IMG/VR virus record: IMGVR_UViG_3300043414_000372
Span: 64,001-128,000 of that record
From: a virus
Taxonomy: Duplodnaviria > Caudoviricetes
Direction: 5' to 3' (one strand)
DNA: 64,000 nt
Shown here: positions 4,086-35,738 of the stretch, in pieces
How positions within the stretch are numbered: position 1 is the stretch's first letter
How the letters are laid out: the number at the start of each line of letters is the position of its first letter
The notes under the pieces: model-generated
Told to the model about the DNA's origin: nothing
Database searches by the model: none
Seen by the model: only the letters and a program-made list of their open reading frames with translations
Program-made: the position numbers and the translations under genes

Positions 4086-4092
4086 TATTTAT
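4086..4092 (-). promoter_or_regulatory. Late promoter (ATAAATA) for tail sheath
   Basis: Motif ~50 nt upstream of the sheath ATG. Confidence 0.55.
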
Positions 4093-5102: not shown

Positions 5103-5165
5103 AAATGAAAATGCTCCTGAAGTACTTATTATACTACAGGAGCAACACAAAATAAACTGTTTAGG

Positions 5166-5963: not shown

Positions 5964-6012
5964 AAGTGTTACCTAATAATACTATTTATCAGGTAACACT
6001 ATGGTTCGTGTA

Positions 6013-6632: not shown

Positions 6633-6634
6633 AA

Positions 6635-7801
6635 TTAAAACGCTTTCAAAATAATCATATTCTCATTAAAGCGACCATTCGGGACTGCCCCTACTGCTTT
6701 AATATCTTTGAAATACTTACGTGCTGCTGGCTTGCTTCCCATCACTTCTTTGATTTGCTCACCCGGTTTACGTAATGTTTTCATCTCGCTAGTATTTGCA
6801 TCAAACCCTAGCAATGTGTTACCTTTAACACTGAACACTTTGCTATAATCGTCAGCAATGTAATGATGTAATTTACGCTTACCTGTATCGTAAACCCACG
6901 CCTCACTTGCACCGTGAAGTTTTGTGGGATGCACACTAACTAAATCAAGTTTAGACTGAACATCCTTGAACAACTTCAAGTATTTCAGTTTAGCAACAAT
7001 CTTTTCTACAGGTACTGCTTTGCGTTTACGCGGAGCCTTGCTTGCTTTCTTAATGCTAATGTAACTATTCAAGTCACCTAGTACCCCGTCAATGAATTTG
7101 AGAATGTTGCGAATCTGAATCTTACCTAGGAACGCATATCCCTCTTTTAATGACTCGTCACCATCACTTAGTCGTTGAAATTCTTCTTGCTTACGCTTCC
7201 AAATATCAACAATGATTGGGATATGTTGCGGCATGACATTGTATTTTGCAACAATATCAACTGTCTTTTCTGACGCCTTGCCCTTAGTAACAAAATCGTC
7301 AATCATCCCTTCCATTTCACCTGCGGCATCTCGTGCTTTTTCTTTCAGAATTTCCTGAATGTTGGGACGTATTGCAACCACTTCTTCTTTTACAATACTT
7401 GTTGCGCTAGTTTTTACCTCAGTCTCTGTCAATGATTTTACAAGTCGGGTAATATCATTTTGCAATGTCAGTTCCTCATGCTCGGTTAATTCTAGTCCGC
7501 GCATTGTCATACGTGCTACCCAGCACAATGTAATAATGAATTCACTTTCATGGACCTTACGAATCTGTTTAGCTTCATCAGTTCGCTTATTGTAATCCAG
7601 ATATTGACACAATAGTTCTTTTGCGTCTTTTTTAGTATAGAAACGGGTATACCATGTAAAACTTCTAGCAAGTGCTGAAAATCTTGCTTCGAGTTCGGGC
7701 TGTATTGGGAAAAAGGGTTCTTCGCCCATATACTTTGTATCAGCGTCCCGGGGGTTTAGTGCTTTGACAAAATGATCGTCTGTATGCTTACGTGTAGCCA
7801 T
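6635..7801 (-). CDS. Hypothetical protein (388 aa), early-promoter driven
   Basis: Long ORF with GGAG RBS and a consensus sigma70 promoter upstream. Confidence 0.8.
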   Translation of the reverse strand: MATRKHTDDHFVKALNPRDADTKYMGEEPFFPIQPELEARFSALARSFTWYTRFYTKKDAKELLCQYLDYNKRTDEAKQIRKVHESEFIITLCWVARMTMRGLELTEHEELTLQNDITRLVKSLTETEVKTSATSIVKEEVVAIRPNIQEILKEKARDAAGEMEGMIDDFVTKGKASEKTVDIVAKYNVMPQHIPIIVDIWKRKQEEFQRLSDGDESLKEGYAFLGKIQIRNILKFIDGVLGDLNSYISIKKASKAPRKRKAVPVEKIVAKLKYLKLFKDVQSKLDLVSVHPTKLHGASEAWVYDTGKRKLHHYIADDYSKVFSVKGNTLLGFDANTSEMKTLRKPGEQIKEVMGSKPAARKYFKDIKAVGAVPNGRFNENMIILKAF

Positions 7802-7831
7802 GAATTACTCCAAAGTTTCAATTGAATACGT

Positions 7832-7860
7832 ATTATAGCACAAGAACCATTTAATGTCAA
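7832..7860 (-). promoter_or_regulatory. Sigma70 early promoter TTGACA-17-TATAAT
   Basis: TTGACA TTAAATGGTTCTTGTGC TATAAT; same spacer family as the cassette repeats. Confidence 0.8.
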
Positions 7861-7893
7861 GTTTTTGGTAATACGCCGTCGTCTGTATTTACG

Positions 7894-7900
7894 ATAAATA
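7894..7900 (+). promoter_or_regulatory. Late promoter (GATAAATA) for neck/tail-terminator genes
   Basis: Motif 20 nt upstream of ATG 7921. Confidence 0.6.
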
Positions 7901-7920
7901 AGTAATAAAGTGAATTAACT

Positions 7921-9624
7921 ATGCCTAGACTCTCGCTTTGGCGTCCCAATAAAACTAATGATTATAACTTTTTTGATAAGATAATATCAGAACAGTTCAC
8001 CGCAGGTTCCACGGATTTGTATGTACATAAATATATGGGTCCGACAAGCCAAGGTCCATCTATAGATGCCACTCAGCCACAATATGATGTATTAGCACCA
8101 ACTAACATACAAGATTTGTTATTCCTAGAAAACCGTGACAGAACATATGACCCAAATGTCTATCGTTTACGTGGACATTATAATGTACAGAATTTAGATT
8201 TTGATTTAAGTCAGTTTGGTTTGTTTCTAAACAACGATATCATTTTCATTACAGTTCATTATAATGATATGATTCAAATAGTTGGTAGAAAACTAATGGT
8301 AGGTGATGTAATAGAGTTGCCTCACTTATTAGATTACAATCCATTGAATGAAACTATACCCACTGCACTAAAACGTTTCATGCAAATTACTGATGCTAAT
8401 TATGCTAGTGAAGGATTTAGCCCAACTTGGTTCCCACATCTATGGCGCATCAAATGTGAGCCATTAGTTGATAGTGAAGAATTTACTCAGATATTAACTG
8501 CTCCAATTGACCAAGATACCTATCTTGGTATTTGGGACAAAGATAAAACATATCCTGCAGGGTATGTAATTACATACGGTGACAAAAATTACAAAGCATT
8601 GATTGATGTTCCTGCAGGGATATATCCCCCCGACCCAACATATTGGCAATTAGACACTGCGGATAACCTTAAAGATATCCTCGCTACTTACAATAAGAAT
8701 ATTGCAATCAATGATGCTGCACTAAGAGAAGCAGACCGTCTTGTACCTAAAGCAGGTTACGACAGAAACAATCTATACATTGTACCTACATATGGTGAAT
8801 ATTCAAGCGACGGGGTTTTCTCAAACGCTATAAATAATCCTGCACCCCCAATAGGGGTCAATACAAACGGTGGCACACCTACAACAACTGGCACTGTAAT
8901 GATGATTCGCAGCCCCAATTACAGAACCCCTAGTACTGTAATTAAAATTCCAAAAGCAGCAATAAAAAGTATTTGGGATATGACCTCTGATATGGGGTAT
9001 GATAAATTAGAAGTTTTCAACACTGCTCATTTAGAAACAATAAGACTAGCACCGGAAAGAACTGATACTAATTCAGGACCGGTTAGAGGTGATGTGATTT
9101 TAACAGTGGTTTCTAGTGGAACTATCACTGGTCCATACGGTACTGCGGATAACACATATGCCACTGCTGATGCTAACCCAGAACTACCCGGATTCACCGG
9201 AACAATAAGTCAACAAATGGATTGGAGAGCAGATTGTGATCCGGCATTCCAATTCATTGCACGTAGCAGCCCAAGAACATTTGGTTATAGCACAGGTTAT
9301 TTAGATGGAACAGCAGAAGCACCAAATGGATTCCCAACTGGTGCGGGTATAAGTTTCCCACAAAATCCACAAGTAGGAGATTACTTCTTGAGAATCGATT
9401 ACTTCCCACAATTATTATATCGCTGGGATGGTAAAATGTGGGTTAGAATTTCACAAAATGTAAGAACACCTACAGGAATGACAGCAGCAGATCAATCACA
9501 GAAGTCTAGTTTCATTAATGACAGGACAGAAACAAAACTTACAGATGGTACATTTGTGCCGCAACGACAAGCATTGTCAACTATATTAGGTTTGACTCCG
9601 GATCCCCTTCCACCAGTAATTTAA
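7921..9624 (+). CDS. Head closure / neck protein (gp14-like) with inserted CBM5/12-like module
   Basis: N-terminal region (DLLFLENRDR, LSQFGLF, LMVGDVIELPH, WFPHLWRIKC) resembles gp14; WDKDKTYPAGYVITYGDKNYKA...P...YWQ resembles a chitin-binding type 3 module. Confidence 0.65.
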   Translation: MPRLSLWRPNKTNDYNFFDKIISEQFTAGSTDLYVHKYMGPTSQGPSIDATQPQYDVLAPTNIQDLLFLENRDRTYDPNVYRLRGHYNVQNLDFDLSQFGLFLNNDIIFITVHYNDMIQIVGRKLMVGDVIELPHLLDYNPLNETIPTALKRFMQITDANYASEGFSPTWFPHLWRIKCEPLVDSEEFTQILTAPIDQDTYLGIWDKDKTYPAGYVITYGDKNYKALIDVPAGIYPPDPTYWQLDTADNLKDILATYNKNIAINDAALREADRLVPKAGYDRNNLYIVPTYGEYSSDGVFSNAINNPAPPIGVNTNGGTPTTTGTVMMIRSPNYRTPSTVIKIPKAAIKSIWDMTSDMGYDKLEVFNTAHLETIRLAPERTDTNSGPVRGDVILTVVSSGTITGPYGTADNTYATADANPELPGFTGTISQQMDWRADCDPAFQFIARSSPRTFGYSTGYLDGTAEAPNGFPTGAGISFPQNPQVGDYFLRIDYFPQLLYRWDGKMWVRISQNVRTPTGMTAADQSQKSSFINDRTETKLTDGTFVPQRQALSTILGLTPDPLPPVI

Positions 9625-9634
9625 AGAGTATATA

Positions 9635-11011
9635 ATGGCAGATTTTTTCTATGATAATCAGATACGCAGATTCTTAATTCAATTTGCAAAAATTTTTAGT
9701 AATTGGCAAGTTACTAAAGGTAAAGACCCGGCAGGTAATGAAATATTAGTTCGTGTACCTGTTATGTATGGCGATAGCAGTAGACAAGCAGCAACTATTA
9801 TTGCTAATAATAGTGCCAGTAACTTACCAAGTGCCCCTTTAATTACATATTACATAGGGGGATTGGAATATAATCAAAAGTGGACACAGGATCCAACGTA
9901 TGTAGATAAAATTAATGTGCGACAAAGAGCATACAACCCTGATACTCAAGAATATGACACTGTGCAGGGTCAAGCATTTACTATTGAAAGATTAATGCCC
10001 GTACCTTATACATTGCGTATTACTGTAGATTTTTGGACTACAAATTATAATCAAAAATTACAATTGATTGAACAATTAGGCACATTGTTTAATCCTGCAT
10101 TAGAAATACAAAGTACTGATAACTTTATTGATTGGACTTCACTAAGTGTGGTATATCAAGATGGACTAACGTTCAGTAGTCGTAGCATACCAGTTGGTAC
10201 AGGCAATCCAATTGATGTTATGAGTTGGAAATTCTCAATGCCAATATGGATTAGTACGGCAGCTAAACTTAAGAAGATGGGGGTAGTTGAGAAAATCATT
10301 ACATCTATCTTTAAGGGCACTGCCCTAACAGATATACAAGATGATGATTTGTTATTGGGTACTAGACAAAAAATTACACCCTATGGATATAAAATATTAT
10401 TGTTAGGTAACACGTTGCAAATATTGCCCCAAGCAATTGCATTTGATCCAACTAATGTTAATTTAGAGTTGCCCCCAAATCCAGATACAGATATATATTG
10501 GTCTAGTGTATTAAATGTATACGGGGCTATTAAACCGGGCATTAGTCAAATTTGGTTAGAAAATCCATACATGACAACTGATATTGTAGGTACTATAGTA
10601 CCTAATCCAAATGATGACAGATTGTTAATCTATAATATTGACCCAGACACATTGCCACAGAATACGTTATCACCAGTTGACGGAGTAATTAATCCTCAGT
10701 TGACGGGGCCAAACGCAGGATTACCCGGACCGGTTAATGGACGTAGATATTTGTTAGTAGACAATATAGGTTCTCCCGGTGATAGTACAGTTGCATGGGG
10801 TACTGTAGTTGCTTTTGCTAATGATATTATTGAATACAATGCAGGAACTGGACAGTGGTTTGTTAGTTTTGATAGCACTACAGCAACACCAACTACATTA
10901 GAATATGTAACAAACTTGACAACTAATGTTCAATATCGCTTTGTTGATGATACTTGGATGAAATCGTATGAGGGTTGGTATGATGCCGGGGATTATTCTA
11001 TAGTCATCTAA
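9635..11011 (+). CDS. Tail terminator / sheath stabiliser (gp15-like) with C-terminal extension
   Basis: FFYDNQIRRFLIQFAKIF, RVPVMYG, MPVPYTLRITVDFW, QLIEQL..LFNP motifs. Confidence 0.75.
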   Translation: MADFFYDNQIRRFLIQFAKIFSNWQVTKGKDPAGNEILVRVPVMYGDSSRQAATIIANNSASNLPSAPLITYYIGGLEYNQKWTQDPTYVDKINVRQRAYNPDTQEYDTVQGQAFTIERLMPVPYTLRITVDFWTTNYNQKLQLIEQLGTLFNPALEIQSTDNFIDWTSLSVVYQDGLTFSSRSIPVGTGNPIDVMSWKFSMPIWISTAAKLKKMGVVEKIITSIFKGTALTDIQDDDLLLGTRQKITPYGYKILLLGNTLQILPQAIAFDPTNVNLELPPNPDTDIYWSSVLNVYGAIKPGISQIWLENPYMTTDIVGTIVPNPNDDRLLIYNIDPDTLPQNTLSPVDGVINPQLTGPNAGLPGPVNGRRYLLVDNIGSPGDSTVAWGTVVAFANDIIEYNAGTGQWFVSFDSTTATPTTLEYVTNLTTNVQYRFVDDTWMKSYEGWYDAGDYSIVI

Positions 11012-11015
11012 TACT

Positions 11016-11447
11016 GTGATAAATCATAGTATGAGCAATACATCCGCAGGCGTTTTCTTTTATAGCAATAAAACAAATCGCTACTTATATCTATTACGCA
11101 CAGACAACAAGAACCCAGGAAACTGGGGTATTCCTGGCGGCAAGATAGAAGATGATGAAACTCTCTTTGAGGGTATTGCTAGAGAATGTCAGGAAGAGAT
11201 TGGACTATTCCCTGACAATGCAAAACTAATTCCCATACAAAAATTTATAAATCACACATTTACATATCATACATTCTTTTGTGAAATAGCAGATGAGTTT
11301 GTTCCTGTACTGAATGAAGAACATTGCGGATATGCATGGGTAGGGGATAATCAATATCCTAAGCCATTGCATCCCGGATTGTTTAGTACAGTAAATTTTG
11401 ATGTTGTACAAGAGAAGTTAAAGACACTTACAAAAAAAGAGACCTAA
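11016..11447 (+). CDS. NUDIX hydrolase
   Basis: Nudix box WGIPGGKIEDDETLFEGIARECQEEIG. Confidence 0.9.
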   Translation: MINHSMSNTSAGVFFYSNKTNRYLYLLRTDNKNPGNWGIPGGKIEDDETLFEGIARECQEEIGLFPDNAKLIPIQKFINHTFTYHTFFCEIADEFVPVLNEEHCGYAWVGDNQYPKPLHPGLFSTVNFDVVQEKLKTLTKKET

Positions 11448-11460
11448 GTCCCTTTTTTTA
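11436..11460. terminator. Probable bidirectional terminator between convergent genes
   Basis: A-tract, short inverted repeat (AAAGAGAC-CTAA-GTCCCTTT), T-tract. Confidence 0.45.
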
Positions 11461-11772
11461 TTTTAGTAATGCTGACACTGTATTGAATCCCAGTGAGCCG
11501 ACTATTACGCCTGCTCCCATCATCATCCAGCGCCATTTTTCTAATACTGAAATCTTACCAGCTAATTCGCCATGTTCCTTAACATCTTGTTCACGCATAG
11601 TTTTCAACATTTGTCTAGTTTCTTCTGCGTTCTCATCTAGGGTATCACGAATTGACTTCAAGTCCTGTCTAATCTCACCGATTTTATCTTCGATGTTTTT
11701 AACTTGGACTTGAAGTACCGCAATTTCAGTTTCAGGTTGCATTTTGGCTACTTTACTTGATGCGGTTGCCAT
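11458..11772 (-). CDS. Coiled-coil protein with C-terminal transmembrane helix
   Basis: Heptad-rich region followed by WRWMMMGAGVIVGSLGF. Confidence 0.65.
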   Translation of the reverse strand: MATASSKVAKMQPETEIAVLQVQVKNIEDKIGEIRQDLKSIRDTLDENAEETRQMLKTMREQDVKEHGELAGKISVLEKWRWMMMGAGVIVGSLGFNTVSALLK

Positions 11773-11774
11773 GA

Positions 11775-13049
11775 TTATGCGCTTGCAATAGTTACGATTG
11801 CGTAAGGTTGACCGTTATCTGCATTAGCAACTGCTGCTGTATTGAATGTTGCAAATACCGGAGCAGCATTTTGGAACACGATATTACCAGTAGCAATTGG
11901 GCCTGAAGTAGCAGTAAACAACTCACCAGTGTGGTCAGAAAGACTTTGAACTGTTTGAGTAGCACTATTAGCATATGTAGCAAGAATACGCATTGTGTTT
12001 GGTGTCAGTGCTGTATTTGCAAGATTTGCTGTATAACATTGATTTGTTAAACCAGTTACTGTTCCTGTTACTAGATATTTTTGTTTACCTTTTTGACGTA
12101 CAATATATCCTGCTTCATCATTTGCATAGACAAATGCTGCATTGCTAAAAGCAATTGGGCAGTTAGCATTTAATACGACACGATTGTGAATTGCATTACC
12201 AGTAACACTTGCATTAGATGTAATAGCTTTTGGTGCACCACCCTGAGTAGCAGAAACAGTAAATGCAGTTGCATTAGCTACAGTTTTAACAAAATATGTT
12301 GTACCTGAAGTTAAACCACCAAATGATGCATCAAATGTTAACGGCATATCAAGTTCTAGCAGTTGTGCATTACCTGATGTTCTAATAACATTGCCTGTTG
12401 CTGTCGTATTAGCAACAGCTACAGTAATATTACCATGTGTTCCAGATGCGAAACCAATGTTGGTATAGTCTGTAGTTCCATTATTATTTGCAACAGCAAC
12501 CTGAAGTGCTGCACCTGTAGCTAAATTAGCTAAGTCAGTACCTACTCCAAATACGCTTGCATTGGTGTTAGCTGCCAAATAGCTATATAATGTACCTGTA
12601 CCATTAATACCAATAGCAACTTGTGCTAATACTTGTTTACCAATGATTGCTGTATTACCACCAACTACAGAATATGTGTTACTGTTCGTAGTTGGGAAAC
12701 CTGCACCACCAACTGGGTTGTTAAAATATGCATCGACTACTGCAACAGATGCTTTAACTGATTGAGCAGATGTAGTTGTTAGTGAAGCAAGAACACGAGG
12801 TTGTACACTTAATTGTGTTGTTGATACTGTAAATGTATGATTGCCTGTGATAGCGTTAATGTAATAAATTGTGTTAGCAACTAATCCACCAACTGTAGAA
12901 GCAACTACGAATGGCATACCAACTGCTACACCAACAGTTGGTTCTGTAGTTAGATTATCTGATACTGTTACATTAGCACCTGAGCCTGAACCAGTTGCTG
13001 TGATTGTTAAGACTGCTTGAGCCTTTGCGATTTTTAGAGGACGTCCCAT
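11775..13049 (-). CDS. Putative virion structural protein (T/A/N/G-rich, internal repeat)
   Basis: Beta-rich composition; repeated GGL..(N/G)T.Y..(N/K).....FTVS.TQ motif; late promoter at 13132-13138. Confidence 0.65.
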   Translation of the reverse strand: MGRPLKIAKAQAVLTITATGSGSGANVTVSDNLTTEPTVGVAVGMPFVVASTVGGLVANTIYYINAITGNHTFTVSTTQLSVQPRVLASLTTTSAQSVKASVAVVDAYFNNPVGGAGFPTTNSNTYSVVGGNTAIIGKQVLAQVAIGINGTGTLYSYLAANTNASVFGVGTDLANLATGAALQVAVANNNGTTDYTNIGFASGTHGNITVAVANTTATGNVIRTSGNAQLLELDMPLTFDASFGGLTSGTTYFVKTVANATAFTVSATQGGAPKAITSNASVTGNAIHNRVVLNANCPIAFSNAAFVYANDEAGYIVRQKGKQKYLVTGTVTGLTNQCYTANLANTALTPNTMRILATYANSATQTVQSLSDHTGELFTATSGPIATGNIVFQNAAPVFATFNTAAVANADNGQPYAIVTIASA

Positions 13050-13065
13050 TTTTTTCTCCTTGAAA

Positions 13066-13124
13066 TATTAGTGAGTTCTAGTCACTACGCGGCGGGGACC
13101 GCATAAACTCGCCGAATGCGAATG
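13066..13124 (-). ncRNA. Candidate structured 5' leader (pseudoknot plus hairpin)
   Basis: GC-rich island in an AT-rich genome between late promoter and RBS: CGCAT/ATGCG stem, CGGCG/CGCCG crossing pair, TAGTGA/TCACTA hairpin. Confidence 0.4.
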
Positions 13125-13150
13125 TATAATATATTTATCTTAGAGGGTAA

Positions 13151-13175
13151 AAAAAGCGACCTAAGTCGCTTTTTA
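13151..13175 (-). terminator. Rho-independent terminator
   Basis: AAAAGCGAC-TTAG-GTCGCTTTTTT on the minus strand after the ORF ending at 13176. Confidence 0.65.
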
Positions 13176-13706
13176 TTATAGCATGTATCCATTTGCCATG
13201 TTAGCATGTGGCATACCCAATTCAGTAATACTGAATTCAGCAGGGGTTGCTGCGCTAGCTGTTAAGAACGCTACTACATTGCCTTGTCCACAATAAACAG
13301 TATTATATGATCCTACTGCATATGAATAAATTTCTGTATTTTGAGTAGCAATTGCGTAAGGTATACCGGCATTATTAAATGTGTAAGTTGTATTAGATAT
13401 TGCAACTCCGGCATTAGCAGTTAATGTTAAACTAGTAGCATTTGCAATATTTGATACAATTCCTACTGTAGTTCCGGTTGTGTTACCTATCCATGCACCA
13501 ACTGTCAGTTGTGTATTAAATGCTGTTCCCACTCCAGTGACTGTTTTGGAATTAGTTGCAGAAGTTGCTGTTCCAGTACCAGCTACTCTAGGGTAACCAG
13601 TTACAGCATGAATACTGGATGTTGTTAAAGATATTCTAATCTTATCAGTTCCTATATTTGCTGATTGTTGCGATACTGAATTCGCGGTATATACGTATGA
13701 TGTCAT
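13176..13706 (-). CDS. Putative virion structural protein
   Basis: T/A/G-rich; late promoter motif upstream; next to tail fibre. Confidence 0.6.
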   Translation of the reverse strand: MTSYVYTANSVSQQSANIGTDKIRISLTTSSIHAVTGYPRVAGTGTATSATNSKTVTGVGTAFNTQLTVGAWIGNTTGTTVGIVSNIANATSLTLTANAGVAISNTTYTFNNAGIPYAIATQNTEIYSYAVGSYNTVYCGQGNVVAFLTASAATPAEFSITELGMPHANMANGYML

Positions 13707-13733
13707 TTTATTATTCCTATATCTTATTTATTA

Positions 13734-16700
13734 TTAAAGTCTGCCAACTGCTACTTCAATAACGCCTTCGCCTTCAAAGTTTTCTAATGATTTGCCGATT
13801 ACTGAACCAATATATGGGTGAATCATTGGTCTCGCATAACCTTCTCCGCCGCTTACTAGCATATCACCTTTATGTATTGTTCCGCGAACTTTAACTGGTA
13901 CACGACCTTGTAATGCTAATGCTACAATATGTTCACCTTGACATTGTGAATTCATTACATAAGCTGGATCAGTTGATACTACCCCTGCAACTCTTGTTGT
14001 ACCATCTTCAGCGATAGTAACTTCTTTGTCACCACCAAACTCTACAACAGTGCCAGGTTCATATGGCTTATCTGCTTCATAATATTCTGCTAAGTCAGCG
14101 TATGTTGCATTAAGTCTTGAGCCTGTACTTAACGAGAAATTACCAGTAAATGTACCAGTGTTTGTGTTTGATCCAACTGAAATTATTGCAGCATTCGTTA
14201 GTGTTAATCCGGTCAATGTACCCACACTAGTAATATTTGGTTGTGCATTAGTTGTAACTGTACCCGCTGTACCTGAACTTACTGCGTAGGTTGCGTTTGC
14301 TACAGTACCGGTTACGTTAGCACCAACTAATGAACTTAATCCATTACCATTGCCAGTAAACACCCCTGTGTTAGCTGTAAATGCTACTGCGGTTACTGTG
14401 CCATTTACGCCGAGTGATGTTAGTGTGCCAACTGATGTAATATTAGGTTGTGCATTTGTTGTTACCGTACCCGCTGTACCTGAACTTACTGCGTAGGTTG
14501 CGTTAGCTACTGTGCCTGTTACGTTACCACCAGTGATTGAACTTAGATTAGCACCATTGCCACTTACATTAGTAAACACACCATTGGTTGCACCTATGTT
14601 ACCAACATTAGCATTACCACTTATATTTGCTGTGCCGGTGATATTAGCACCAGTACCAGTTACTACTAGTGTAGTGTTTCCTGCTACAACAGTGTTTACA
14701 TTTCCGCCTGATGCAGGTATACTCACATTACTTGTACCATTAACAATGCTTGTCCCGGCAGATATATTAAGGTTGGTGATATTACTGCCGTCACCTTTTA
14801 AGTAAGTTGCACTTAATATTGTAGTAGATAAATTACCAGTCGCGGCATTGAATGATAAGTTAGCATTTGCGCCGTGTGCTAAATTACCCGATGTTGCATT
14901 GACAAATACTGGATAGAATGTGCCAGTGCTTTGTACAGTTACTGCACCGTATGTTGTGACATTTGCATTTGGTACAATGCCGGTAACATTACCTCCAGCA
15001 AGTGCGGTTAATGAACTACCATTACCAGCGAATAAAGTCGCACTTAATGTACCAGTTGTTGAATTGAATGATAAGTTAGCATTGCTTGCCAATTGATAAT
15101 TAGCAGTAGTGTTGCCAGTAACAAATGTTGGATACCAAGTTCCATTTATATTAGTTACAACATTAGCATAGTTTGCTATATTAGATTGGTCAACATTTAA
15201 ATTAGCAACACGAGTTGTGCTAGTTACTGTAAACGGTGCAGTTCCGGTTGTTATCGTAGATATGATCTGTCCTGCTGTACCCAAGTTACCAACATTTGCA
15301 TTACCTGAAATGTTTGCTGTACCAGTAATATTTGCACCAGTATCACTAATAACCATTGTGCTATTACTCTTGGCTGTAAACGTAAGATTAGCGTTAGTTG
15401 TTATGGTAACATTGCTATTTCCATTCTGTAGTAACCCACTATTGATAGTAGTGATGTTGCCCGTAGTAGCAATTAAAGTTGTTGTACCTAGATTACCAAC
15501 ATTTGCATTACCACTTACATTTGCCGTACCAATAATATTCGCACCAGTATCACTAATAACCATTGTGCTATTACTCTTAGCTGTAAAGGTAATGTTTGCA
15601 TTTTGCGTTATAGCAATATTGCTATTGCCATTTGCATGCGGTCCAACTAAATTACCACCGGTGATATTACCAGTAACTGCTAGACTAGTTAATGTTCCAG
15701 TACTTGTTATGTTTGGCTGTGCTGCTGTTGTTAATGTACCAGTTAATAATGTTGCACTCAATGCACCAGTCGCAGCATTGAATGATAAATTAGCATTGGC
15801 TCCTTGTGCCAAATTGCCCGATGTAGCGTTTACAAATATTGGATACCATGTTCCAGTTGTTGTTAGTGCAGTGTTAGCATATTCAGAAACATTAGCCCTT
15901 GCTACATATAAATTAGGAACTAGTGTTGTACTTGATACTATTAAAGGTATATTACCGGAAGGTATATTTGATACGAATACCGGTGATGTAACACTGTATG
16001 ATGCATTTACATTTGCGGTAATAACATACCCACTAGCAACTGTTAGTGTGTGTGTTGACTTAACAAATGTAAAATTAGAATCACCTTGTATGAGACCGCC
16101 GTCATTGAACTGAACCTGAGTATCTGCACTAGGACCAATGTTTCCACCTCCGCCGGCAGAGGTTGTTGTAGCAATACCTGAATTTGCCACGTAACTAGCT
16201 ATCCCAGTACCCGGTACCGGATTACTGTTTCCTATATAATATAAAGAAACATTTCCAGTTGTTGGATAATTAGATGCCAACAGTATTTTAAATGCTTGTC
16301 CATTAACAATTGTGTTTGAAACTGAATTAACCCCTGTTATCGTAACTTCAGCATTATTTGTATATGGTGTGGTCGGGCTCACTGTCATTACAATTGGAGT
16401 AGCATTTGATAGTGCTATGATTGGAGTATATAGCGTACCCTGAGGAGTCCAAGATAAATTACCTGAACCGTCTGTCTGTAACACATATCCAATAGCTCCG
16501 CCTGTCATTGAAATGTTTGCTACATTACCTAATTGTAGTTTAGTCCCGTTAAGTTGAGAACTATTACCTTTATAATTTTCCCATGTATTTGTACTAGCAA
16601 CATAAGTTAGTATTTGTCCGGTCGACGGGGAAGTAATATTAAAATTACCACCACCGCTGCCGTTGATTTGACTAAAACTAATATCAGAATATGAAGTTAA

Positions 16701-26245: not shown

Positions 26246-26626
26246 ATGATCCAAAACGAATTCTTTAAACGATTGACAGAAAATCATCCGTTCATCACAG
26301 TATGTTCATATGCCAACCAAGATTATGTTGGAATTGTTCAAAACCGTGATGAGATGGTGACCACTATCTATGATTATGGTGCTATCACAGATAATACAAT
26401 CAAAGAAAAGTTTCTCTCCCTAGGAGAAATATGGTGGTGGGAATCCAATAGACTAATCCCCATTAATCTGTTTTTAAAAGAAGATTGGATTCCCTTTAAG
26501 CCCTATCTCAGGACTTTCACTAACAAAAGTCTAATAGTAGTACACGGTCCAACTTGTAGTATGGCCGAATTAGGAAAACGTAGAAGTAAACGCCGTAGCA
26601 TCACCCTCGTCAAGCGTATGCCCTAA
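26246..26626 (+). CDS. Hypothetical protein
   Basis: ORF with GATAAATA late motif at ~26221. Confidence 0.7.
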   Translation: MIQNEFFKRLTENHPFITVCSYANQDYVGIVQNRDEMVTTIYDYGAITDNTIKEKFLSLGEIWWWESNRLIPINLFLKEDWIPFKPYLRTFTNKSLIVVHGPTCSMAELGKRRSKRRSITLVKRMP

Positions 26627-27181
26627 CAAATTTATGTGAACAACTACTAATTGTGCATATGCAATCGCATGTGCTTTCTTAAACACATAACCATCAGTTC
26701 CCTTATCCCATACAGTTCTATTAATCTCTGACCAGACTTTCCCAATCAAATGCTTTTTGCCAGGACGAATAACTGCTAGAAACATTGCTAATCTTGGGAT
26801 GCTGTCTATAGGTTCTGGCATCTTCTCTAAGTTATAGTACTGATTGTTCAAGTGAATCAGTTTCTCAACAAAAGATTTATCCTTAAGTTTACTCCAATCA
26901 GGCTCAACCATCAATTCAGTTAGATGTTGTTCATCTCTGACATTCTCATAGACATGAACATTTAGTAAATCTAGTTTGAAGTACCCACGCTTCTCTGCTA
27001 CTGTATAATCAATACTTGCTATATCATGTATCGGGTCATAGGGAATAGGTGTAACATATACACCAGTAGCATGTTTACGAATAGGATTGACATTACGCAT
27101 TGCCGCACTTGTGTGCTTAATCAATTCAAGCAATTTATCTCTTGAACCAAAATCAATGTCAATGTCACTATCTATTCTCAC
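26570..27181 (-). CDS. Minimal DNA polymerase III alpha (DnaE)-like protein
   Basis: Collinear DnaE motifs DIDIDF, KHATGV, FKLDLL, IRPG, YVFKKAHAIAY in only 203 aa. Confidence 0.75.
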   Translation of the reverse strand: MRIDSDIDIDFGSRDKLLELIKHTSAAMRNVNPIRKHATGVYVTPIPYDPIHDIASIDYTVAEKRGYFKLDLLNVHVYENVRDEQHLTELMVEPDWSKLKDKSFVEKLIHLNNQYYNLEKMPEPIDSIPRLAMFLAVIRPGKKHLIGKVWSEINRTVWDKGTDGYVFKKAHAIAYAQLVVVHINLLGHTLDEGDATAFTSTFS

Positions 27182-27738
27182 GGTGCCATTACTCCTGCTT
27201 TGATTAGTTTAGTATACGCTTTTTGTACAACAATAGCTTGTCTTTCGGCATCTTCTACTGCTTTGTGACTAGTAGAATGCCCGCCGTCACTTAGTTTGAC
27301 GCCTGCAACTTCATACAACGTTCTAGTGTCTCGTACGGTATAGAATGGCCACGGTATTCGCATTCCAAGTTGACGCCATGCGGTTTCCGCAACAACGACA
27401 TCAAATGAAGCCCCATTAGACCACACAGCGCGGCGATTCCAACAAAACTTATAAAGGGCTTCCATACATTCGCTATATGAAATACGTCCCTGATCTCCCA
27501 TTGCTTCTTCTCTTGCAGCTTCGGACTGCTCTCCCCACCATCTAATAGTATCTTCATTAATAACCCTATCATATTTTTCAGTTTGTTCATCAATCGTAGG
27601 ACGCAATTCTAATCGTTCTACTACACCATTCCCTTTAGGATCAAACCGTACAGCTCCTATAGTTAATATAACACAAAATGGACTTGTGTCAAGTGTCTCC
27701 ATGTCAATCATTATATCATTTGCCATTACATTTGCCAC
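27178..27738 (-). CDS. DEDDh 3'-5' exonuclease (RNase AS / Rv2179c-like)
   Basis: IMIDMETL, WSNGASFD, VRDTRT, HKAVEDA. Confidence 0.85.
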   Translation of the reverse strand: MANVMANDIMIDMETLDTSPFCVILTIGAVRFDPKGNGVVERLELRPTIDEQTEKYDRVINEDTIRWWGEQSEAAREEAMGDQGRISYSECMEALYKFCWNRRAVWSNGASFDVVVAETAWRQLGMRIPWPFYTVRDTRTLYEVAGVKLSDGGHSTSHKAVEDAERQAIVVQKAYTKLIKAGVMAP

Positions 27739-27998
27739 ATTTCATACATTGTTATTAATCTATCATCCCACAACTCTATTGTAACACATCCTCCAACTAA
27801 GGAGAAGTCCCAACCTTGGTGTCTTTCACCGAAATTTCTTCTCATCCATTTTACAATGATAGATGGATCTTCTTTGTGATATTTACAGTCTCTGTTGTAG
27901 ACTGTTCTGTTGCCATTTTTATATTTGTTATCTCTACAACCATTGATATAGACAGTCGGGGCAGCTAGGCCAAATGAGCCAGTGTTCATGTATGCCAT
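27726..27998 (-). CDS. Small paralogue-array protein 12
   Basis: IVKWMRRNFG...GWDF...IELWDDRLITMYEMW. Confidence 0.7.
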   Translation of the reverse strand: MAYMNTGSFGLAAPTVYINGCRDNKYKNGNRTVYNRDCKYHKEDPSIIVKWMRRNFGERHQGWDFSLVGGCVTIELWDDRLITMYEMWQM

Positions 27999-27999
27999 A

Positions 28000-28275
28000 T
28001 CATCCCCATTTCAATAAAAATATTAAGTAGAGTTTTTCATCTACTACTTCGTACCCATCAGTGATGTTACCATTAACTATATTCATTTTTACGCCATACT
28101 TCTGTTCTAGGTAATCTTCAAAATCATATGCGTCAAAATTAGTTTTGTTTTCCATGTACTCTACACGAACTTTTTTCAATGCTTCCCAATACTTCCAACG
28201 ATTCTTTCGTTGATGTAATGCTGGATCATCGTCATCATAATCTTGAAATGATTTTGATATATTGGTCATACCCAT
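28000..28275 (-). CDS. Small paralogue-array protein 11
   Basis: Ends VVDEKLYLIFLLKWG. Confidence 0.72.
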   Translation of the reverse strand: MGMTNISKSFQDYDDDDPALHQRKNRWKYWEALKKVRVEYMENKTNFDAYDFEDYLEQKYGVKMNIVNGNITDGYEVVDEKLYLIFLLKWG

Positions 28276-28469
28276 CTCAATGCAAAATAGGTGCTATATT
28301 CTTCTTTATAGAAATTAAATACTGCGCGGCGATCTCTTGTATCATATGTAGAAGAACGATGATATGCCCAATCAAAATCTACTCCATCAGTCCAGCCGTG
28401 TGCTTGCATTTGATGTACTATTTCTATTACTTCATTTGCGCTTTTGCCGTAGATGGTTACAGATTTCAT
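28266..28469 (-). CDS. Small paralogue-array protein 10
   Basis: Ends FYKEEYSTYFALRWV. Confidence 0.72.
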   Translation of the reverse strand: MKSVTIYGKSANEVIEIVHQMQAHGWTDGVDFDWAYHRSSTYDTRDRRAVFNFYKEEYSTYFALRWV

Positions 28470-28732
28470 TCCCAGCGTAGCAAAAACAATGTTAAATCTT
28501 CAGCACGGGTAAGCATTATCTCACACTGCTTAATGTTATCTACCCAACGATTACTTCCAGTTTCATCATCATAGCCTGAATTGCCATAATTCTTTTTACA
28601 CCATTTCTTTATTTCTTTAGTGTCAACATCATCTTGGTTCTTCCAAGAGATAGTATGTATATTAACTTTGCTACCGAAATAGCGTTCTGTTTTGTGTGTA
28701 AATTTACTCATGACCACCTTAAAATAAACCAT
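28466..28732 (-). CDS. Small paralogue-array protein 9
   Basis: KKWCKKNYG; ends AEDLTLFLLRWE. Confidence 0.72.
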   Translation of the reverse strand: MVYFKVVMSKFTHKTERYFGSKVNIHTISWKNQDDVDTKEIKKWCKKNYGNSGYDDETGSNRWVDNIKQCEIMLTRAEDLTLFLLRWE

Positions 28733-28956
28733 GCTGCCAATTTGGGATCTTTAACTGTGATAGTAGGCACATATCTGAGTCCCATGTTACGAGGGTCAAA
28801 CACTTCATGTCCTTGTGGATAAACACACTCACTCTTGTAGAACCAGGCATAATTGTCGCCGTCAGCGCCAATCATATTGCCCTTGCCCACATGCTGGTTC
28901 AACCATTCGGTACAACCTTCGGGCACCCCTTGTCTAAACTCTACTCTCATGACCAT
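28708..28956 (-). CDS. Small paralogue-array protein 8
   Basis: TEWLNQHVG; ends KDPKLAAWFILRWS. Confidence 0.72.
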   Translation of the reverse strand: MVMRVEFRQGVPEGCTEWLNQHVGKGNMIGADGDNYAWFYKSECVYPQGHEVFDPRNMGLRYVPTITVKDPKLAAWFILRWS

Positions 28957-29204
28957 CTCAATAAAAAAAATGTAGCATCACTACCTTCTTTGAAAGCAAT
29001 CGTGCTGTCCCAGGAATCATATTCAATTTTAGCTTCTTTTAACCAATCTTTCACATTACTAGACACACTAGGAATGTACCATGGATGCGGTATATTAACA
29101 ATAGTCCAACCCATAGCATTGTATAATACTTCTTTGTCAATGCTATCAGATATTTTTTTGGCAACTATATCAAGAATGTGTTGTTCTATATCCATCATGA
29201 CCAT
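28947..29204 (-). CDS. Small paralogue-array protein 7
   Basis: KDWLKEA; ends AFKEGSDATFFLLRWS. Confidence 0.72.
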   Translation of the reverse strand: MVMMDIEQHILDIVAKKISDSIDKEVLYNAMGWTIVNIPHPWYIPSVSSNVKDWLKEAKIEYDSWDSTIAFKEGSDATFFLLRWS

Positions 29205-29440
29205 CTCAATATAAAATGTGTAGCATCTTTTGCGTCTAAGAAATAGAATGTACTACCAGCCCACTCATTTTTTTGCAAACAACAATCACGCTTATGTTCA
29301 CTAACCCACCTAACCATTTCTGCAACTTGATCACACCAATCAGTCCAATCCATTCCCGGGCGTACTGTAAGATGTACCTTGTGATAATTCTTGTCAATAT
29401 CACGTTTTGCTTTTCTACGCTGCTTGCTATTCATGACCAT
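29195..29440 (-). CDS. Small paralogue-array protein 6
   Basis: VRWVSEH; ends YFLDAKDATHFILRWS. Confidence 0.72.
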   Translation of the reverse strand: MVMNSKQRRKAKRDIDKNYHKVHLTVRPGMDWTDWCDQVAEMVRWVSEHKRDCCLQKNEWAGSTFYFLDAKDATHFILRWS

Positions 29441-29754
29441 CTCAATATGAAAAAGGTTCTATCTTGTTCATCACGGAACCAATACTTACGATTACTGCCT
29501 ACCCACCGAGCGTTTTCTTTATGCCAATTATTATCACCCATTATGTTTAACAGCCATTTGTCCATGTCATACCACTCTTTTTCATCATAGTTACATGGAC
29601 GCACCCAGTAGGGCCATTTAGGTTGATTGTCAGCGTAACCAGTTTCAAGGCGTTTCATGTTGATTTCATCTATCCATTGATTTGCTAAATCAGTTACCCA
29701 TCTATTGTTAGCCATAGCACGTTTCTTTATCATTGCCAAACCAATCCAAACCAA
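29431..29754 (-). CDS. Small paralogue-array protein 5
   Basis: DKWLLNIMG; ends WFRDEQDRTFFILRWS. Confidence 0.72.
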   Translation of the reverse strand: MVWIGLAMIKKRAMANNRWVTDLANQWIDEINMKRLETGYADNQPKWPYWVRPCNYDEKEWYDMDKWLLNIMGDNNWHKENARWVGSNRKYWFRDEQDRTFFILRWS

Positions 29755-29963
29755 GTTGCATGTTCAGGGGTATCAAAATCTACTGTAATAACATTATTAC
29801 CTATAGCACCGCGTGGTGCTACATCTCGTCCCATTTTCATATGCCAGCCTTTACCATGCCAAAAGATTATTGGTTTACTATTTAATAGTGGACCAATGTT
29901 TTCTTGCAGCCAATGTAATATTGGTGCCCATTGTTTGCCATAAACTTTTACAGTAGCGGTCAT
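29730..29963 (-). CDS. Small paralogue-array protein 4
   Basis: LHWLQENIG; ends DFDTPEHATWFGLVWQ. Confidence 0.72.
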   Translation of the reverse strand: MTATVKVYGKQWAPILHWLQENIGPLLNSKPIIFWHGKGWHMKMGRDVAPRGAIGNNVITVDFDTPEHATWFGLVWQ

Positions 29964-30208
29964 TCAACCCAGTCTTTTTCCAAAAGTTTTAAATGTTTTT
30001 TCATTATAAAATGTATATCACAATAAGGATCACCATGGTTACCTTGTACTAATGTCATATACCAACCCTGTCCTTCCCAGGCAACAATAGGCTTAGCGGC
30101 AACTAATTTGCCTATGTTTTTCTGTAGCCAAATTAACAGGGCGGCATAGTCTGCGCCCCATAATCTGGCCACATATTTGTAAGTCACTTGTTTTGTTTTT
30201 GTTACCAT
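29960..30208 (-). CDS. Small paralogue-array protein 3
   Basis: LIWLQKNIG, closely similar to protein 4; degenerate C-terminus LLEKDWVE. Confidence 0.7.
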   Translation of the reverse strand: MVTKTKQVTYKYVARLWGADYAALLIWLQKNIGKLVAAKPIVAWEGQGWYMTLVQGNHGDPYCDIHFIMKKHLKLLEKDWVE

Positions 30209-30423
30209 CTTAAACTACAAAAAATGTAGTCTCGTTCATATCTAAATTTTATTCTTACTTCAAATTCATCCCAGGTGCACAATGTGTGCCTTTCATAATT
30301 TTCAATTTTATTACATAACCAATCTATCACTTCAATACGATGCAGTTGCCGGCGATTTTCATCTAGTTTAATAACACGTTCATGCCAACCCGGTCGTATA
30401 TCTTCCCATCTTCTCATAACCAT
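30202..30423 (-). CDS. Small paralogue-array protein 2
   Basis: IDWLCNKI; ends KFRYERDYIFCSLRW. Confidence 0.72.
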   Translation of the reverse strand: MVMRRWEDIRPGWHERVIKLDENRRQLHRIEVIDWLCNKIENYERHTLCTWDEFEVRIKFRYERDYIFCSLRW

Positions 30424-30650
30424 CTTAAACTAAAATGTATCGCATCACGCTCATCTTTAAATACAAAATCCATATAATCTTCTGTCATGTGTGTGTAAAA
30501 CTTCTCACCCGGCAAATCAAATTGTTCTATTGCCCAAATACAAGTTTCATCCCAATCACTAATTGTATCACCCTTCATCCAAGGGATACGAACCCTAGTA
30601 CCCTGCTTCGCCGAGGGTGTCTTTAATTCGTTTCGTAAGTTCTGCATCAC
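30414..30650 (-). CDS. Small paralogue-array protein 1
   Basis: CIWAIEQF; ends VFKDERDAIHFSLRWL. Confidence 0.72.
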   Translation of the reverse strand: MMQNLRNELKTPSAKQGTRVRIPWMKGDTISDWDETCIWAIEQFDLPGEKFYTHMTEDYMDFVFKDERDAIHFSLRWL

Positions 30651-31332
30651 GTTTAAACCTTATTGCCCACTGTTCTGGATTCACATAATCAATGATCATT
30701 TTAACATGGCCTTCATTTAATGTATCTAGAAAACGGACACCGCTGTCGCTTTGATACAACAGCCATGGACTAATCTTACCCGTTGTTATCGCATAACAAA
30801 TCTTATTTGCATTCCCATATCTTAATATGTCATGTGGTAATATTTTGGCATCAGTTGCCATTTCCATACAATACTCAATACTACGATGAATTGCATCAAA
30901 TGCATCTTCATGTCGCAAAAACTCAATTAGATATTTAGTATAGGTACTATCACTGCACCAATTGTCAATCTTAACTTGATTCTTTAACAACCAATCAACA
31001 AATCTTGGAATATTTATCGCATTGATATTGACACAATAATTACCAAACTTAACAAAAGCAATGTAATATGGATTCTTAATGAAATCTTCTTGCTTAAGGT
31101 TTTTTCTTTTTGATGTATTCTTTTTATAAAACTCTAACCAACATTGAAACCCAATTCTATTTCCATGATTATCTTTATCTAACCATCTACGTTTTGGTTC
31201 GCATACATGACTAAGCGTGGTTGATTCACGCAAAAACTCTCTCTTGCAAAAATCACAGCCATACTTTGCTGTCTTTTTAATTGCCGAGGTCTCTTTCATA
31301 TTGCTTAAGTTGTTCTTCAGTAATAGTGTCAT
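30595..31332 (-). CDS. Hypothetical protein with N-terminal Zn-finger-like motif (likely start ~31299)
   Basis: YGCDFCKREF...HVCE. Confidence 0.7.
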   Translation of the reverse strand: MTLLLKNNLSNMKETSAIKKTAKYGCDFCKREFLRESTTLSHVCEPKRRWLDKDNHGNRIGFQCWLEFYKKNTSKRKNLKQEDFIKNPYYIAFVKFGNYCVNINAINIPRFVDWLLKNQVKIDNWCSDSTYTKYLIEFLRHEDAFDAIHRSIEYCMEMATDAKILPHDILRYGNANKICYAITTGKISPWLLYQSDSGVRFLDTLNEGHVKMIIDYVNPEQWAIRFKRDAELTKRIKDTLGEAGY

Positions 31333-32376: not shown

Positions 32377-32405
32377 ATTATATCATTTATATGTAAGTTT
32401 TTCAA
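32377..32405 (-). promoter_or_regulatory. Sigma70 promoter, probably leaderless
   Basis: TTGAAA-17-TATAAT-6 nt-ATG. Confidence 0.55.
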
Positions 32406-33870
32406 CATCAAATGGATAATTAGCCTCTTTATAAAATGCTTTTCTTTGTGTAAGATGCCGTTTTGCAAACTTACAATTACTTGTGATATCCCAAATCTGA
32501 ACAAAGTTCTTATCTTCGGCTTTACGAATACCACGTCCAATACTTTGAATCACCCGAACAAAACTCTTACCCGGTTCAATAAGAACAAGATTAAAGATTC
32601 GGGGAATATTAATACCCACTGCTGCCACACCATATGTAGCTATAATGATTTTGTTAGTTGCTGTTGCAACCTCGTCATATTGTTCTTTGCGTTCATCCAT
32701 ACCAGTGTTACCTGATACGAATACTACATCATATTCTGTTTTGAAATCTCTAAGTAGTTCGGCTAACCTATTATGTAGTTCTTTACCTGCTGCTACTCTA
32801 TCAACTAATATTAATGTGTTGCCACTATTCTTAATCACATCGACCAATTGAGTAATTTTATTTAATCGTTTATCATCTTCAAGCAAATGTTTTAGTTCAG
32901 ATTGGTAATTACTAAACTCAACCCCATCTTGTAGTTGTACAATGTTTACATGACATTGTGCCAATACACCTCTATCTTGTAATTCGCTAGCAGATAGTTT
33001 ATTAATAACATTTCCAAGACTGATAAAGATTGCTTGACTTGCGAATTTTTCTTTAGGGATAGTACCAGTTAATCCCCAGCGAATTGGTATGTTGCTCATT
33101 ACACCAGTCAATAATTCTTTTAGTGCGTCGGCCTTGGCCATGTGAACCTCGTCTACCATGACACAAACTACACCTTCCAAGAAGTCACCAATCTCAACTT
33201 CTGCTTCACCTGTTTTTGTTTTCTTAAGCATGTTATTCAGACTTTGCCAAGTACAGATTGTATGTGTCTTATTATATTCTTTTCTATCACCAAAGTATAC
33301 ACCAACGTCTAGTCCAAGATTAATGTAATCTGCTTCTGTTTGTGTTACAAGACTTTTGTTTGGTACGATAACAATACTGCGCCCGTAACTTTCAATAGAC
33401 CAACTTAATGCTGCTGTGATTAATGTCTTGCCTGCTCCTGTAGCAATCTCTTGTAGTGATTGTGGATTTTTTAGAAACTCATTAATGATTGATATTTGAT
33501 AGTCACGCAATACAACTGGTTGACCTTCAATAGGATGACCCTTGGGCCAATTCTTGTGTTTGAACGTAGCCTCGGACACTTCACTAAAATTGAATGTTGT
33601 ACTGTATGTACGAAGGTCCTCTAGTTCAATATCATAGTCTCGGCTATCAATAAAGGGAAGTATTTTGGGTAGTAGATTAACATAGCTACTGCCACCGAGA
33701 CTAAAGAAACTTACCTTACCATTCCATCTACCAAGACGGACCGCGGGAAGATACCTTGCTCCGGGCACTTCGTACTCAAACATCTTAACCAGTGCTTTAC
33801 GCTCGGTTAATTCTAAGCCTTCAATCTTTACATTGACTTCATCCCTGACGATTATTTTACATTGTTTCAT
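32383..33870 (-). CDS. uvsW: UvsW-like SF2 DNA helicase
   Basis: LRDYQ, ATGAGKT, VDEVH, GLTGT, IQSIGRGIR. Confidence 0.9.
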   Translation of the reverse strand: MKQCKIIVRDEVNVKIEGLELTERKALVKMFEYEVPGARYLPAVRLGRWNGKVSFFSLGGSSYVNLLPKILPFIDSRDYDIELEDLRTYSTTFNFSEVSEATFKHKNWPKGHPIEGQPVVLRDYQISIINEFLKNPQSLQEIATGAGKTLITAALSWSIESYGRSIVIVPNKSLVTQTEADYINLGLDVGVYFGDRKEYNKTHTICTWQSLNNMLKKTKTGEAEVEIGDFLEGVVCVMVDEVHMAKADALKELLTGVMSNIPIRWGLTGTIPKEKFASQAIFISLGNVINKLSASELQDRGVLAQCHVNIVQLQDGVEFSNYQSELKHLLEDDKRLNKITQLVDVIKNSGNTLILVDRVAAGKELHNRLAELLRDFKTEYDVVFVSGNTGMDERKEQYDEVATATNKIIIATYGVAAVGINIPRIFNLVLIEPGKSFVRVIQSIGRGIRKAEDKNFVQIWDITSNCKFAKRHLTQRKAFYKEANYPFDVEKLTYK

Positions 33871-35032: not shown

Positions 35033-35061
35033 ATTTTACACTATAACCCATTTACTGTCAA
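35033..35061 (-). promoter_or_regulatory. Early promoter cassette a (TTGACA-17-TAAAAT)
   Basis: TTGACAGTAAATGGGTTATAGTGTAAAAT. Confidence 0.7.
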
Positions 35062-35240
35062 TAGTCAGTAAACCCTAGATTGTACATAGCACTACGAAAT
35101 GGCTCTGGGCTTTTCGGGTTGGCCCACATATAAACATCGTCACGTACCTGATCGGTGCAATTGAATTCAAACAATTCATAAATTTGATCGTTTGTGGACA
35201 CTTCACATTGTTGAATAAATTCTACGATACTAGTAATCAT
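35058..35240 (-). CDS. Hypothetical early protein
   Basis: Lies between two promoter cassettes; AAGGA RBS. Confidence 0.65.
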   Translation of the reverse strand: MITSIVEFIQQCEVSTNDQIYELFEFNCTDQVRDDVYMWANPKSPEPFRSAMYNLGFTDY

Positions 35241-35272
35241 TTTTGATTCCTTTATTAACTGAACAAGATTGT

Positions 35273-35301
35273 ATTATACACCCAATACCATTTATTGTCA
35301 A
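35273..35301 (-). promoter_or_regulatory. Early promoter cassette b (TTGACA-17-TATAAT)
   Basis: TTGACAATAAATGGTATTGGGTGTATAAT. Confidence 0.8.
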
Positions 35302-35321
35302 GTATTGGGTGTATGCTGTTT

Positions 35322-35588
35322 TTACTTTTGTGTACGCAAGAATGCAGCTTTGCTATTGTGAATGTCGTAAGACTTTTCACCAGTTTTCACTACAAACAAT
35401 TTTGCAGTCCCGCAACTGATTTTAGCTGGGCCCATATTGGGTGCTTTAGTCAGTACTGGGATATGCAGGCCCTGAAAGTTTTTCTCAAACAGAATGCGAG
35501 ACACTTGGCCCTCGCTTGTTGGCAGTTTAGAAAATACAGTGTTATATTGTGCAATCAAAGTATTGATTTCAACTAGAGACATTTTCAT
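35322..35588 (-). CDS. Hypothetical early protein
   Basis: Lies between promoter cassettes; AAAGG RBS. Confidence 0.65.
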   Translation of the reverse strand: MKMSLVEINTLIAQYNTVFSKLPTSEGQVSRILFEKNFQGLHIPVLTKAPNMGPAKISCGTAKLFVVKTGEKSYDIHNSKAAFLRTQK

Positions 35589-35615
35589 AGGTACCTTTCA
35601 AGTGATTAAGAGTAT

Positions 35616-35644
35616 ATTATATACCCAATTTCATTTATTGTCAA
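35616..35644 (-). promoter_or_regulatory. Early promoter cassette c
   Basis: TTGACAATAAATGAAATTGGGTATATAAT. Confidence 0.8.
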
Positions 35645-35709
35645 CTTTTCTTTTGTTGTTTTTATGCAACAAAAGTTATTCATAGATAAAATCAACTGAA
35701 TAAGCCGTA

Positions 35710-35738
35710 ATGATACACGAAAATCCATTTAATGTCAA
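35710..35738 (-). promoter_or_regulatory. Early promoter cassette d (no ORF before the next cassette)
   Basis: TTGACATTAAATGGATTTTCGTGTATCAT. Confidence 0.7.

Follow-up and report, generated by a model that had tools for sequence, protein, structure and literature searches.

Small diverged paralogues in a tandem array fill a variable slot of a T4-related freshwater jumbo phage

Results

A tandem array of twelve small genes

The window analyzed here (64,000 nucleotides, positions 64001-128000 of the 229,851-bp IMG/VR record IMGVR_UViG_3300043414_000372, which is estimated to be 61% complete) contains, at 27726-30650 on the minus strand, twelve consecutive head-to-tail open reading frames (ORFs), m01 to m12 (Table 1). 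We analyzed this array and the family of small phage proteins, named here after its F-x-L-R-W motif, to which its genes are linked. The twelve ORFs are 67-107 aa long as longest ORFs and 67-100 aa with their likely starts, and neighbors overlap by 4 nt (ATGA), overlap by 10 nt, or abut. The likely true starts of m04 (28711) and m08 (29733) both lie in ATGA overlaps, unlike the starts of the longest ORFs. An earlier note, made from the sequence alone, had described this row of small ORFs on one strand together with a set of helix motifs (WMRRNFG, WCKKNYG, WLNQHVG, WLLNIMG, WLQENIG, and WLQKNIG) and C-terminal endings, all of which are present in the translations.

The array ORFs are real genes. 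Every one of the twelve has orthologues in related contigs and is under purifying selection, with pairwise dN/dS values of 0.07-0.5 against these orthologues, which share 60-100% identity across many phages. Paralogue pairs within the window reach at most ~46% identity, over part of their length only, so the duplications must be old. Some members stand out in their distribution: orthologues of m12 head the slot in 79 IMG/VR loci, the m08 subfamily is found in nearly all slots of related loci, and m05 is missing from most of them. Strong conservation among relatives was seen for m02 and for the C-terminal 50 residues of m01.

Definition of the F-x-L-R-W family

A profile built from nine members retrieved 183 close orthologues, none of which is named. 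HMMER was then run exhaustively through 1.8 billion representatives and yielded 187 clusters (50% identity) at E<=1e-3. All 187 relatives are 55-160 aa long, the domain is always C-terminal, and the match reaches the last residues in nearly all of them. An alignment of 106 sequences (A2) defines the family, with the consensus W[CL]xExxG ... W ... FxFxxExDAxxFxLRW and near-invariant W, F, F, L, R, and W residues. The chain ends 0-2 residues after the final Trp in 11 of the 12 array members, in 134/149 representatives, and in 189/206 unique 3' ends; m10, which ends in W-V-E, does not carry the L-R-W motif. No fused forms longer than 176 aa were found, which is weak evidence.

To place the array genes in this family, a hidden Markov model (HMM) made of foreign sequences only was run on all 693 stop-to-stop ORFs of the window. 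Nine array genes took the top ranks (E 3e-17 to 2e-6), while m01, m02, and m10 ranked 10th, 12th, and 13th (E 0.007-0.05). By sequence comparison, m10 is nevertheless a family member, linked through m09 (BLAST 6e-14, N-terminal half) and through a profile-profile comparison of its orthologues with A2 (hhalign P 3.8e-6, probability 73%). The remaining two, m01 and m02, are probable divergent members; for m02, the profile-profile match to the family (hhalign P ~1e-3) spans helix 1 to the C-terminus. The earlier description of a diverged paralogue family is confirmed; m01 and m02 are linked to it weakly. A leave-one-out HMM of the window's own twelve proteins, which align poorly, gave a modest separation from shuffled controls for some members only. 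A thirteenth copy had been suspected at 51691-51948, but this ORF scored E 0.7 with the external HMM, has no orthologue among related loci, and is rejected; within the 229,851-bp record, the family is confined to the m01-m12 array.

The family had not been recognized in the earlier note, and we found no hit at curated cut-offs in Pfam-A, PHROGs v4, or NCBIfam for the 12 proteins and the 106 family members, no family match in a PDB sequence search, and no description of the family in the literature searched. A resemblance of helix 1 to an oligoribonuclease helix in a PDB profile search (E 0.08) was judged to be due to chance. Of note, four relatives (P0127, P0145, P0152, and P0247) carry two family domains in tandem within one protein, and P0196 has a hydrophobic N-terminal extension that is probably membrane-spanning.

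Table 1 Coordinates of the array genes, their junction repeats, the candidate promoter, and the genes bordering the slot
Feature	Coordinates	Strand	Description
m12	30414..30650	-	78 aa; heads the array; strongest member; external-only HMM E 3e-17; dN/dS 0.24
m11	30202..30423	-	73 aa; last residue is the conserved W; HMM E 1.9e-10; dN/dS 0.16
m10	29960..30208	-	82 aa; diverged, LRW ending lost; dN/dS 0.12
m09	29730..29963	-	77 aa; ends in FGLVWQ; HMM E 6e-10; missing in some close relatives
m08	29431..29733	-	100 aa (107 aa from upstream TTG); N-terminal extension; HMM E 6e-15
m07	29195..29440	-	81 aa; HMM E 8e-10; protein chosen for the AlphaFold2 model
m06	28947..29204	-	85 aa; HMM E 6e-9; dN/dS 0.5, weakest constraint in the array
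m05	28708..28956	-	82 aa; helix 1 and strand 3 separated by a long insertion; HMM E 1.8e-6
m04	28466..28711	-	81 aa from ATGA-overlap start (longest ORF 88 aa, to 28732); HMM E 8e-15; dN/dS 0.12
m03	28266..28469	-	67 aa; minimal domain without extension; HMM E 4e-8; dN/dS 0.07
m02	28000..28275	-	91 aa; acidic N-terminal tail; ends in FLLKWG; HMM E 0.05; dN/dS 0.11
m01	27726..27998	-	90 aa; final array gene before the exonuclease; HMM E 0.007; hhalign P 2.5e-4; dN/dS 0.29
Junction 17-mer, 3 exact copies	28947-28963, 29195-29211, 29431-29447	-	Exact repeat; encodes (I/L)-L-R-W-S-stop and an out-of-frame M-V-M start
Candidate sigma-70-like promoter	32377..32405	-	11/12 matches, extended -10 TG; precedes the co-directional genes to which the array belongs; consensus match only
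Conserved 245-aa protein (phrog_11058)	30595..31332	-	Fixed upstream slot border; directly precedes the array in related loci
Rv2179c-like DEDD 3'-5' exonuclease	27178..27738	-	PF16473 E 4e-34; fixed downstream slot border
DnaE-like 'mini' polymerase protein	26570..27181	-	203 aa; phrog_11778 'DNA polymerase' E 2e-55; Phosso homologue annotated DnaE-like

The gene ends probably carry the next start signal

Three array junctions share an exact 17-mer (Table 1). Its coding strand reads TTG AGA TGG TCA TGA (L-R-W-S-stop) and, out of frame, the ATG GTC ATG A within it starts the next gene. Codon usage was compared over 206 unique 3' ends of family genes, taken from the window and from related loci. 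Exactly one codon follows the Trp codon in 168 of these 206 ends, and an ATGA-type stop/start overlap occurs in 125 (61%). AGA or AGG encodes the Arg before the W in 83% of cases, compared with 39% for the other Arg residues of these domains (Fisher p 3e-26, a value that overstates independence because the 3' ends include orthologues) and with 35% in the R-W dipeptides of long ORFs. The end of a family gene probably doubles as the initiation signal of the next one: the purine-rich AGR-TGG would give either an in-frame ATG/GTG or a Shine-Dalgarno-like element 5-6 bases before the overlapping ATG. This dual coding of the gene end is a new point of the present analysis.

No strong promoter or terminator pattern was found between the array genes, and no terminator-like site is listed on the minus strand between the candidate promoter at 32377..32405 and the array. 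Four further sigma-70 consensus matches (two of 12/12 and two of 11/12, all with 17-nt spacers) lie within 700 bp on the minus strand at 35033-35738, with a strong terminator-like hairpin (33947-33928) downstream of them. Among the sequencing runs searched, one labeled as RNA yielded just one contig, of 229 nt and lying in the 3' part of m01, which is too little to claim transcription; the other runs marked as possible RNA are probably DNA.

A predicted small alpha/beta domain

An AlphaFold2 model of m07 (mean pLDDT 80.6) has the element order beta-alpha-beta-beta-alpha in a domain of ~60 residues. In the m02 model (alpha-alpha-beta-beta-alpha, pLDDT 72), the alpha-beta-beta-alpha core is kept and a helix replaces strand 1. 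The models and the A2 alignment agree with the earlier description of a small alpha/beta domain with variable regions between conserved anchors. The same cannot be said of the docking role that had been proposed for the C-terminal motif. F-x-L-R-W forms the end of the last amphipathic helix (m07 residues 70-80, pLDDT about 82-92) and, because of this placement and of conserved residues that are aromatic or aliphatic, it looks most simply like core structure in the model, and not like a free docking tail. At the DNA level, the start of the following gene places a further constraint on the last codons.

No catalytic pattern of conserved His, Cys, or Ser residues can be seen in A2. Fold searches with the model returned only generic ferredoxin-like neighbors, and the matches among PDB and viral folds were to uncharacterized proteins only. 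A homodimer prediction for m07 scored 0.06, which counts neither way.

Capsid fragments in some distant relatives

It should be noted that some distant relatives carry a fragment of the T4-type major capsid protein, the conserved segment around a V-Q-P-M motif, at their N-terminus, ahead of the F-x-L-R-W domain. The clearest is P0258 (Pfam Gp23 E 7.6e-11), which is 37% identical to residues 59-117 of the source phage's own capsid protein; P0143 gives the same Gp23 match more weakly, and a third carrier is listed at L001:1022-1330 (comparison locus G000:C1:211907-212914, L089). The same capsid segment is matched by phrog_12830, a 'major head protein' family of 128 positions, and 13% of the proteins in an Atlas cluster of ~114-aa viral sequences give a Gp23 hit. 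m08 belongs to the extended subfamily, but no link between its own extension and the capsid protein was detectable. By eye, the extensions of some other relatives resembled a DnaB Walker A motif, a PolB motif A, or a tail-fibre motif, none of which was confirmed in Pfam or PHROGs; a PolB motif B in P0209 reached E 1e-3 only.

The array occupies a variable slot between fixed borders

The source is a freshwater jumbo phage related to T4. Its UvsW-type helicase (32383-33870) shares 55.6% identity with a homologue in the 469-kb Sinorhizobium phage Phosso and 49-50% with those of Atu_ph07 and the GAP32 group. The 229,851-bp record also has a gene for a T4-type Gp23 capsid protein, and the array region turns up in freshwater, lake, and river metagenomes of many studies. 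Neither a nucleotide search with the array region nor a tblastn search with a typical relative (P0137) gave any match in cultured phages.

As the earlier note had placed it, the array lies between replication genes and a DEDD exonuclease followed by a mini-DnaE (PF16473 and phrog_11778 matches, respectively). The gene order is constant in the 79 IMG/VR loci found with m12: the uvsW helicase, phrog_11279, phrog_11758, and phrog_11058, the array, the Rv2179c-like exonuclease, and the ~200-aa DnaE-like protein. The DnaE-like gene directly follows and overlaps the exonuclease gene, and the two are retained on the downstream side of the array in about 80 related contigs.

The content of the slot, in contrast to its borders, is fluid. 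Complete slots, available in 52 loci, measure 982-5125 bp and hold 4 to about 18 ORFs, with about 2 to 11 family matches in related loci. Among close relatives, m05, m06, m07, m09, and m10 are present or absent, and metagenome contigs that join 28717 to 28957 (m05 skipped) or 29729 to 29960 (m09 skipped) correspond to unit deletions. In distant relatives, the order within the slot is reshuffled and other family members are present. The slot of some relatives also holds unrelated cargo, namely a ROK-family sugar kinase, radical-SAM/SPASM proteins, a PhyH-type dioxygenase, and an endonuclease VII-like protein (L044:10930-11787, L048:2398-3642, L056:5268-7254, and L072:9486-9899).

Arrays were also found elsewhere: L082 has ten tandem copies next to a TROVE-like gene, and L001 has nine. 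Among cultured phages, the family profile has 32 matches in Phosso (PV764938.1), in several clusters, at the C-termini of annotated hypothetical proteins; five weak matches in Atu_ph07; and none in GAP32. The Phosso matches, for example those at 2896-14020 (L088), have varied endings (FKLRWS, FKLAIT, FKVAMS, and FKLRFG), and some of the clusters are interleaved with tRNA genes.

Discussion

The array consists of old, diverged paralogues of one uncharacterized phage family and fills a hypervariable accessory slot. Our preferred, tentative reading (probability of roughly 0.4) is that these genes may encode early-expressed, small, diversified binders of host or competitor proteins, acting in host takeover or counter-defence. 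Several features point in this direction: conserved residues that appear structural, variable loops and extensions, a spread of isoelectric points, old paralogues under purifying selection, and a fluid copy number. Loops and N-terminal extensions vary between paralogues, conserved segments differ from one paralogue group to the next (a basic helix in m01 and an acidic tail in m02, for example), and the pI of family members ranges from 4.7 to 9.3. These group-specific features and this pI range suggest that the paralogues aim at different targets. The single common partner imagined in the earlier note finds no support, whereas the anti-defence role that it proposed is still a plausible guess.

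Such a system could work as follows. The array would be expressed as part of a co-directional run behind the sigma-70-like promoter, with most of its genes translationally coupled. The L-R-W-x-stop codons would give the next gene its start codon and probably its ribosome-binding purines too. As each gene end would carry the next start signal, whole genes could come and go at the conserved junction with downstream expression left intact. At the protein level, the conserved residues would form the hydrophobic core while loops, extensions, and charge vary, each paralogue being conserved across phages. The products would then be small, non-enzymatic binding proteins with different targets, probably acting early in infection. 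A bolder version, which we think unlikely, sees the genes as plug-in cassettes of freshwater and soil jumbo phages, each combining a diversified binder against a defence or takeover target with a start signal in its last five codons; arrays would grow, shrink, and reshuffle through recombination at the common junction with expression kept, and variants with a capsid N-terminus would be decoys or assembly modulators.

Several points weigh against a binder function. Neither experiment nor homology connects any of the proteins with targets, defence systems, or activities; the generic fold is equally compatible with an RNA- or ligand-binding role; and the placement among replication genes could indicate a replisome accessory role. 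It is also important to note that m01 and m02 are tied to the family weakly, that the promoter and coupling calls come from consensus matches and codon statistics alone, and that the 206 3' ends, which include orthologues, are non-independent.

The fold itself suggests one alternative, that these small proteins bind nucleic acids or ligands and thereby tune the replication, transcription, or translation of the phage; some might, for instance, bind RNA and repress certain messages. The ACT, RRM, ribosomal protein S6, and MESD core domains likewise consist of two helices packed against a small antiparallel sheet, in a similar element order. The array family has three strands and not four, shows no sequence similarity to these domains, and reaches a best Z of 7.3 against ferredoxin-like folds, a level that the tool calls common by chance; neither the RNP1/RNP2 motifs of RRM domains nor ACT ligand-site motifs were seen in the family. 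We regard this role as less probable than that of diversified binders.

The neighborhood suggests another, that the proteins are replisome accessory subunits or adaptors docking through their shared domain on one phage partner (the exonuclease, the mini-DnaE, or the 245-aa protein), which corresponds to the common-partner idea of the earlier note. The same replication-type genes flank the array in about 80 related contigs, and one scaffold is common to all members, as such adaptors would lead one to expect. Yet the copy number of the slot varies from about 2 to 11, and its membership differs between close relatives; the Phosso and L082 copies lie in quite different neighborhoods (a tRNA region and a TROVE-like gene); the same slot accepts unrelated cargo in other phages; and the conserved residues look buried in the model, and not like a surface patch. 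We consider adaptors of this kind improbable. Least probable are mainly selfish or neutral passenger cassettes with recombining ends and their own translation signal, of little benefit to the phage: the conserved junction repeats, the unit-sized gains and losses, a 3' end apparently built for translation coupling, and the capsid N-terminus and other gene fragments acquired in some relatives would fit them, but every member is under purifying selection, orthologues remain 60-100% identical while the paralogues are old, and the array itself contains neither a nuclease nor a recombinase associated with it.

The array can be compared with several known systems. The hyperplastic regions of T4-like phages contain small early genes whose shuffling is explained by the promoter-early stem-loop (PeSL) model. 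The array slot resembles these regions in being flanked by core genes and in holding small, co-directional, probably early genes whose content varies between close relatives; it differs in being filled mostly by paralogues of one family. The repeated element also differs from PeSL units, as it is the coding 3' end itself; with genes that overlap by 4-10 nt or abut, without spacers, there is no room for a promoter and a stem-loop. Phage anti-CRISPR and anti-restriction loci and the multigene families of large DNA viruses are likewise clusters of small, fast-turnover accessory proteins in variable loci, and the array shares with them a conserved scaffold with variable surfaces among paralogues. 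No array member, however, matched a known anti-defence protein by sequence or fold in general libraries (no dedicated anti-defence set was searched), and the aca-type regulator marker is absent at the array. A lineage-specific expansion of a small domain in a jumbo phage has been described in Bacillus phage G, with about 35 zinc ribbon copies (PMC7824862). As in the array family, many copies of one small domain are found and their function is guessed; the array family, in contrast, has a different fold, no metal-binding residues, and an organization in coupled tandem arrays. The F-x-L-R-W family does not appear in that survey.

The family is large, with at least 187 clusters (50% identity), phage contigs in about a dozen studies of freshwater, lake, and river metagenomes, and 32 matches in a cultured 469-kb phage, and is unnamed in any curated library; even if its proteins prove ordinary, a new domain family has been defined for annotation. 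Phosso, on Sinorhizobium meliloti, offers a laboratory system for it. Small proteins that are present in multiple copies and probably made early are a good place to seek new host-takeover or counter-defence functions, and the double use of L-R-W-x-stop, as protein core and as the next start, would give a testable account of modular, coupled tandem arrays in these phages.

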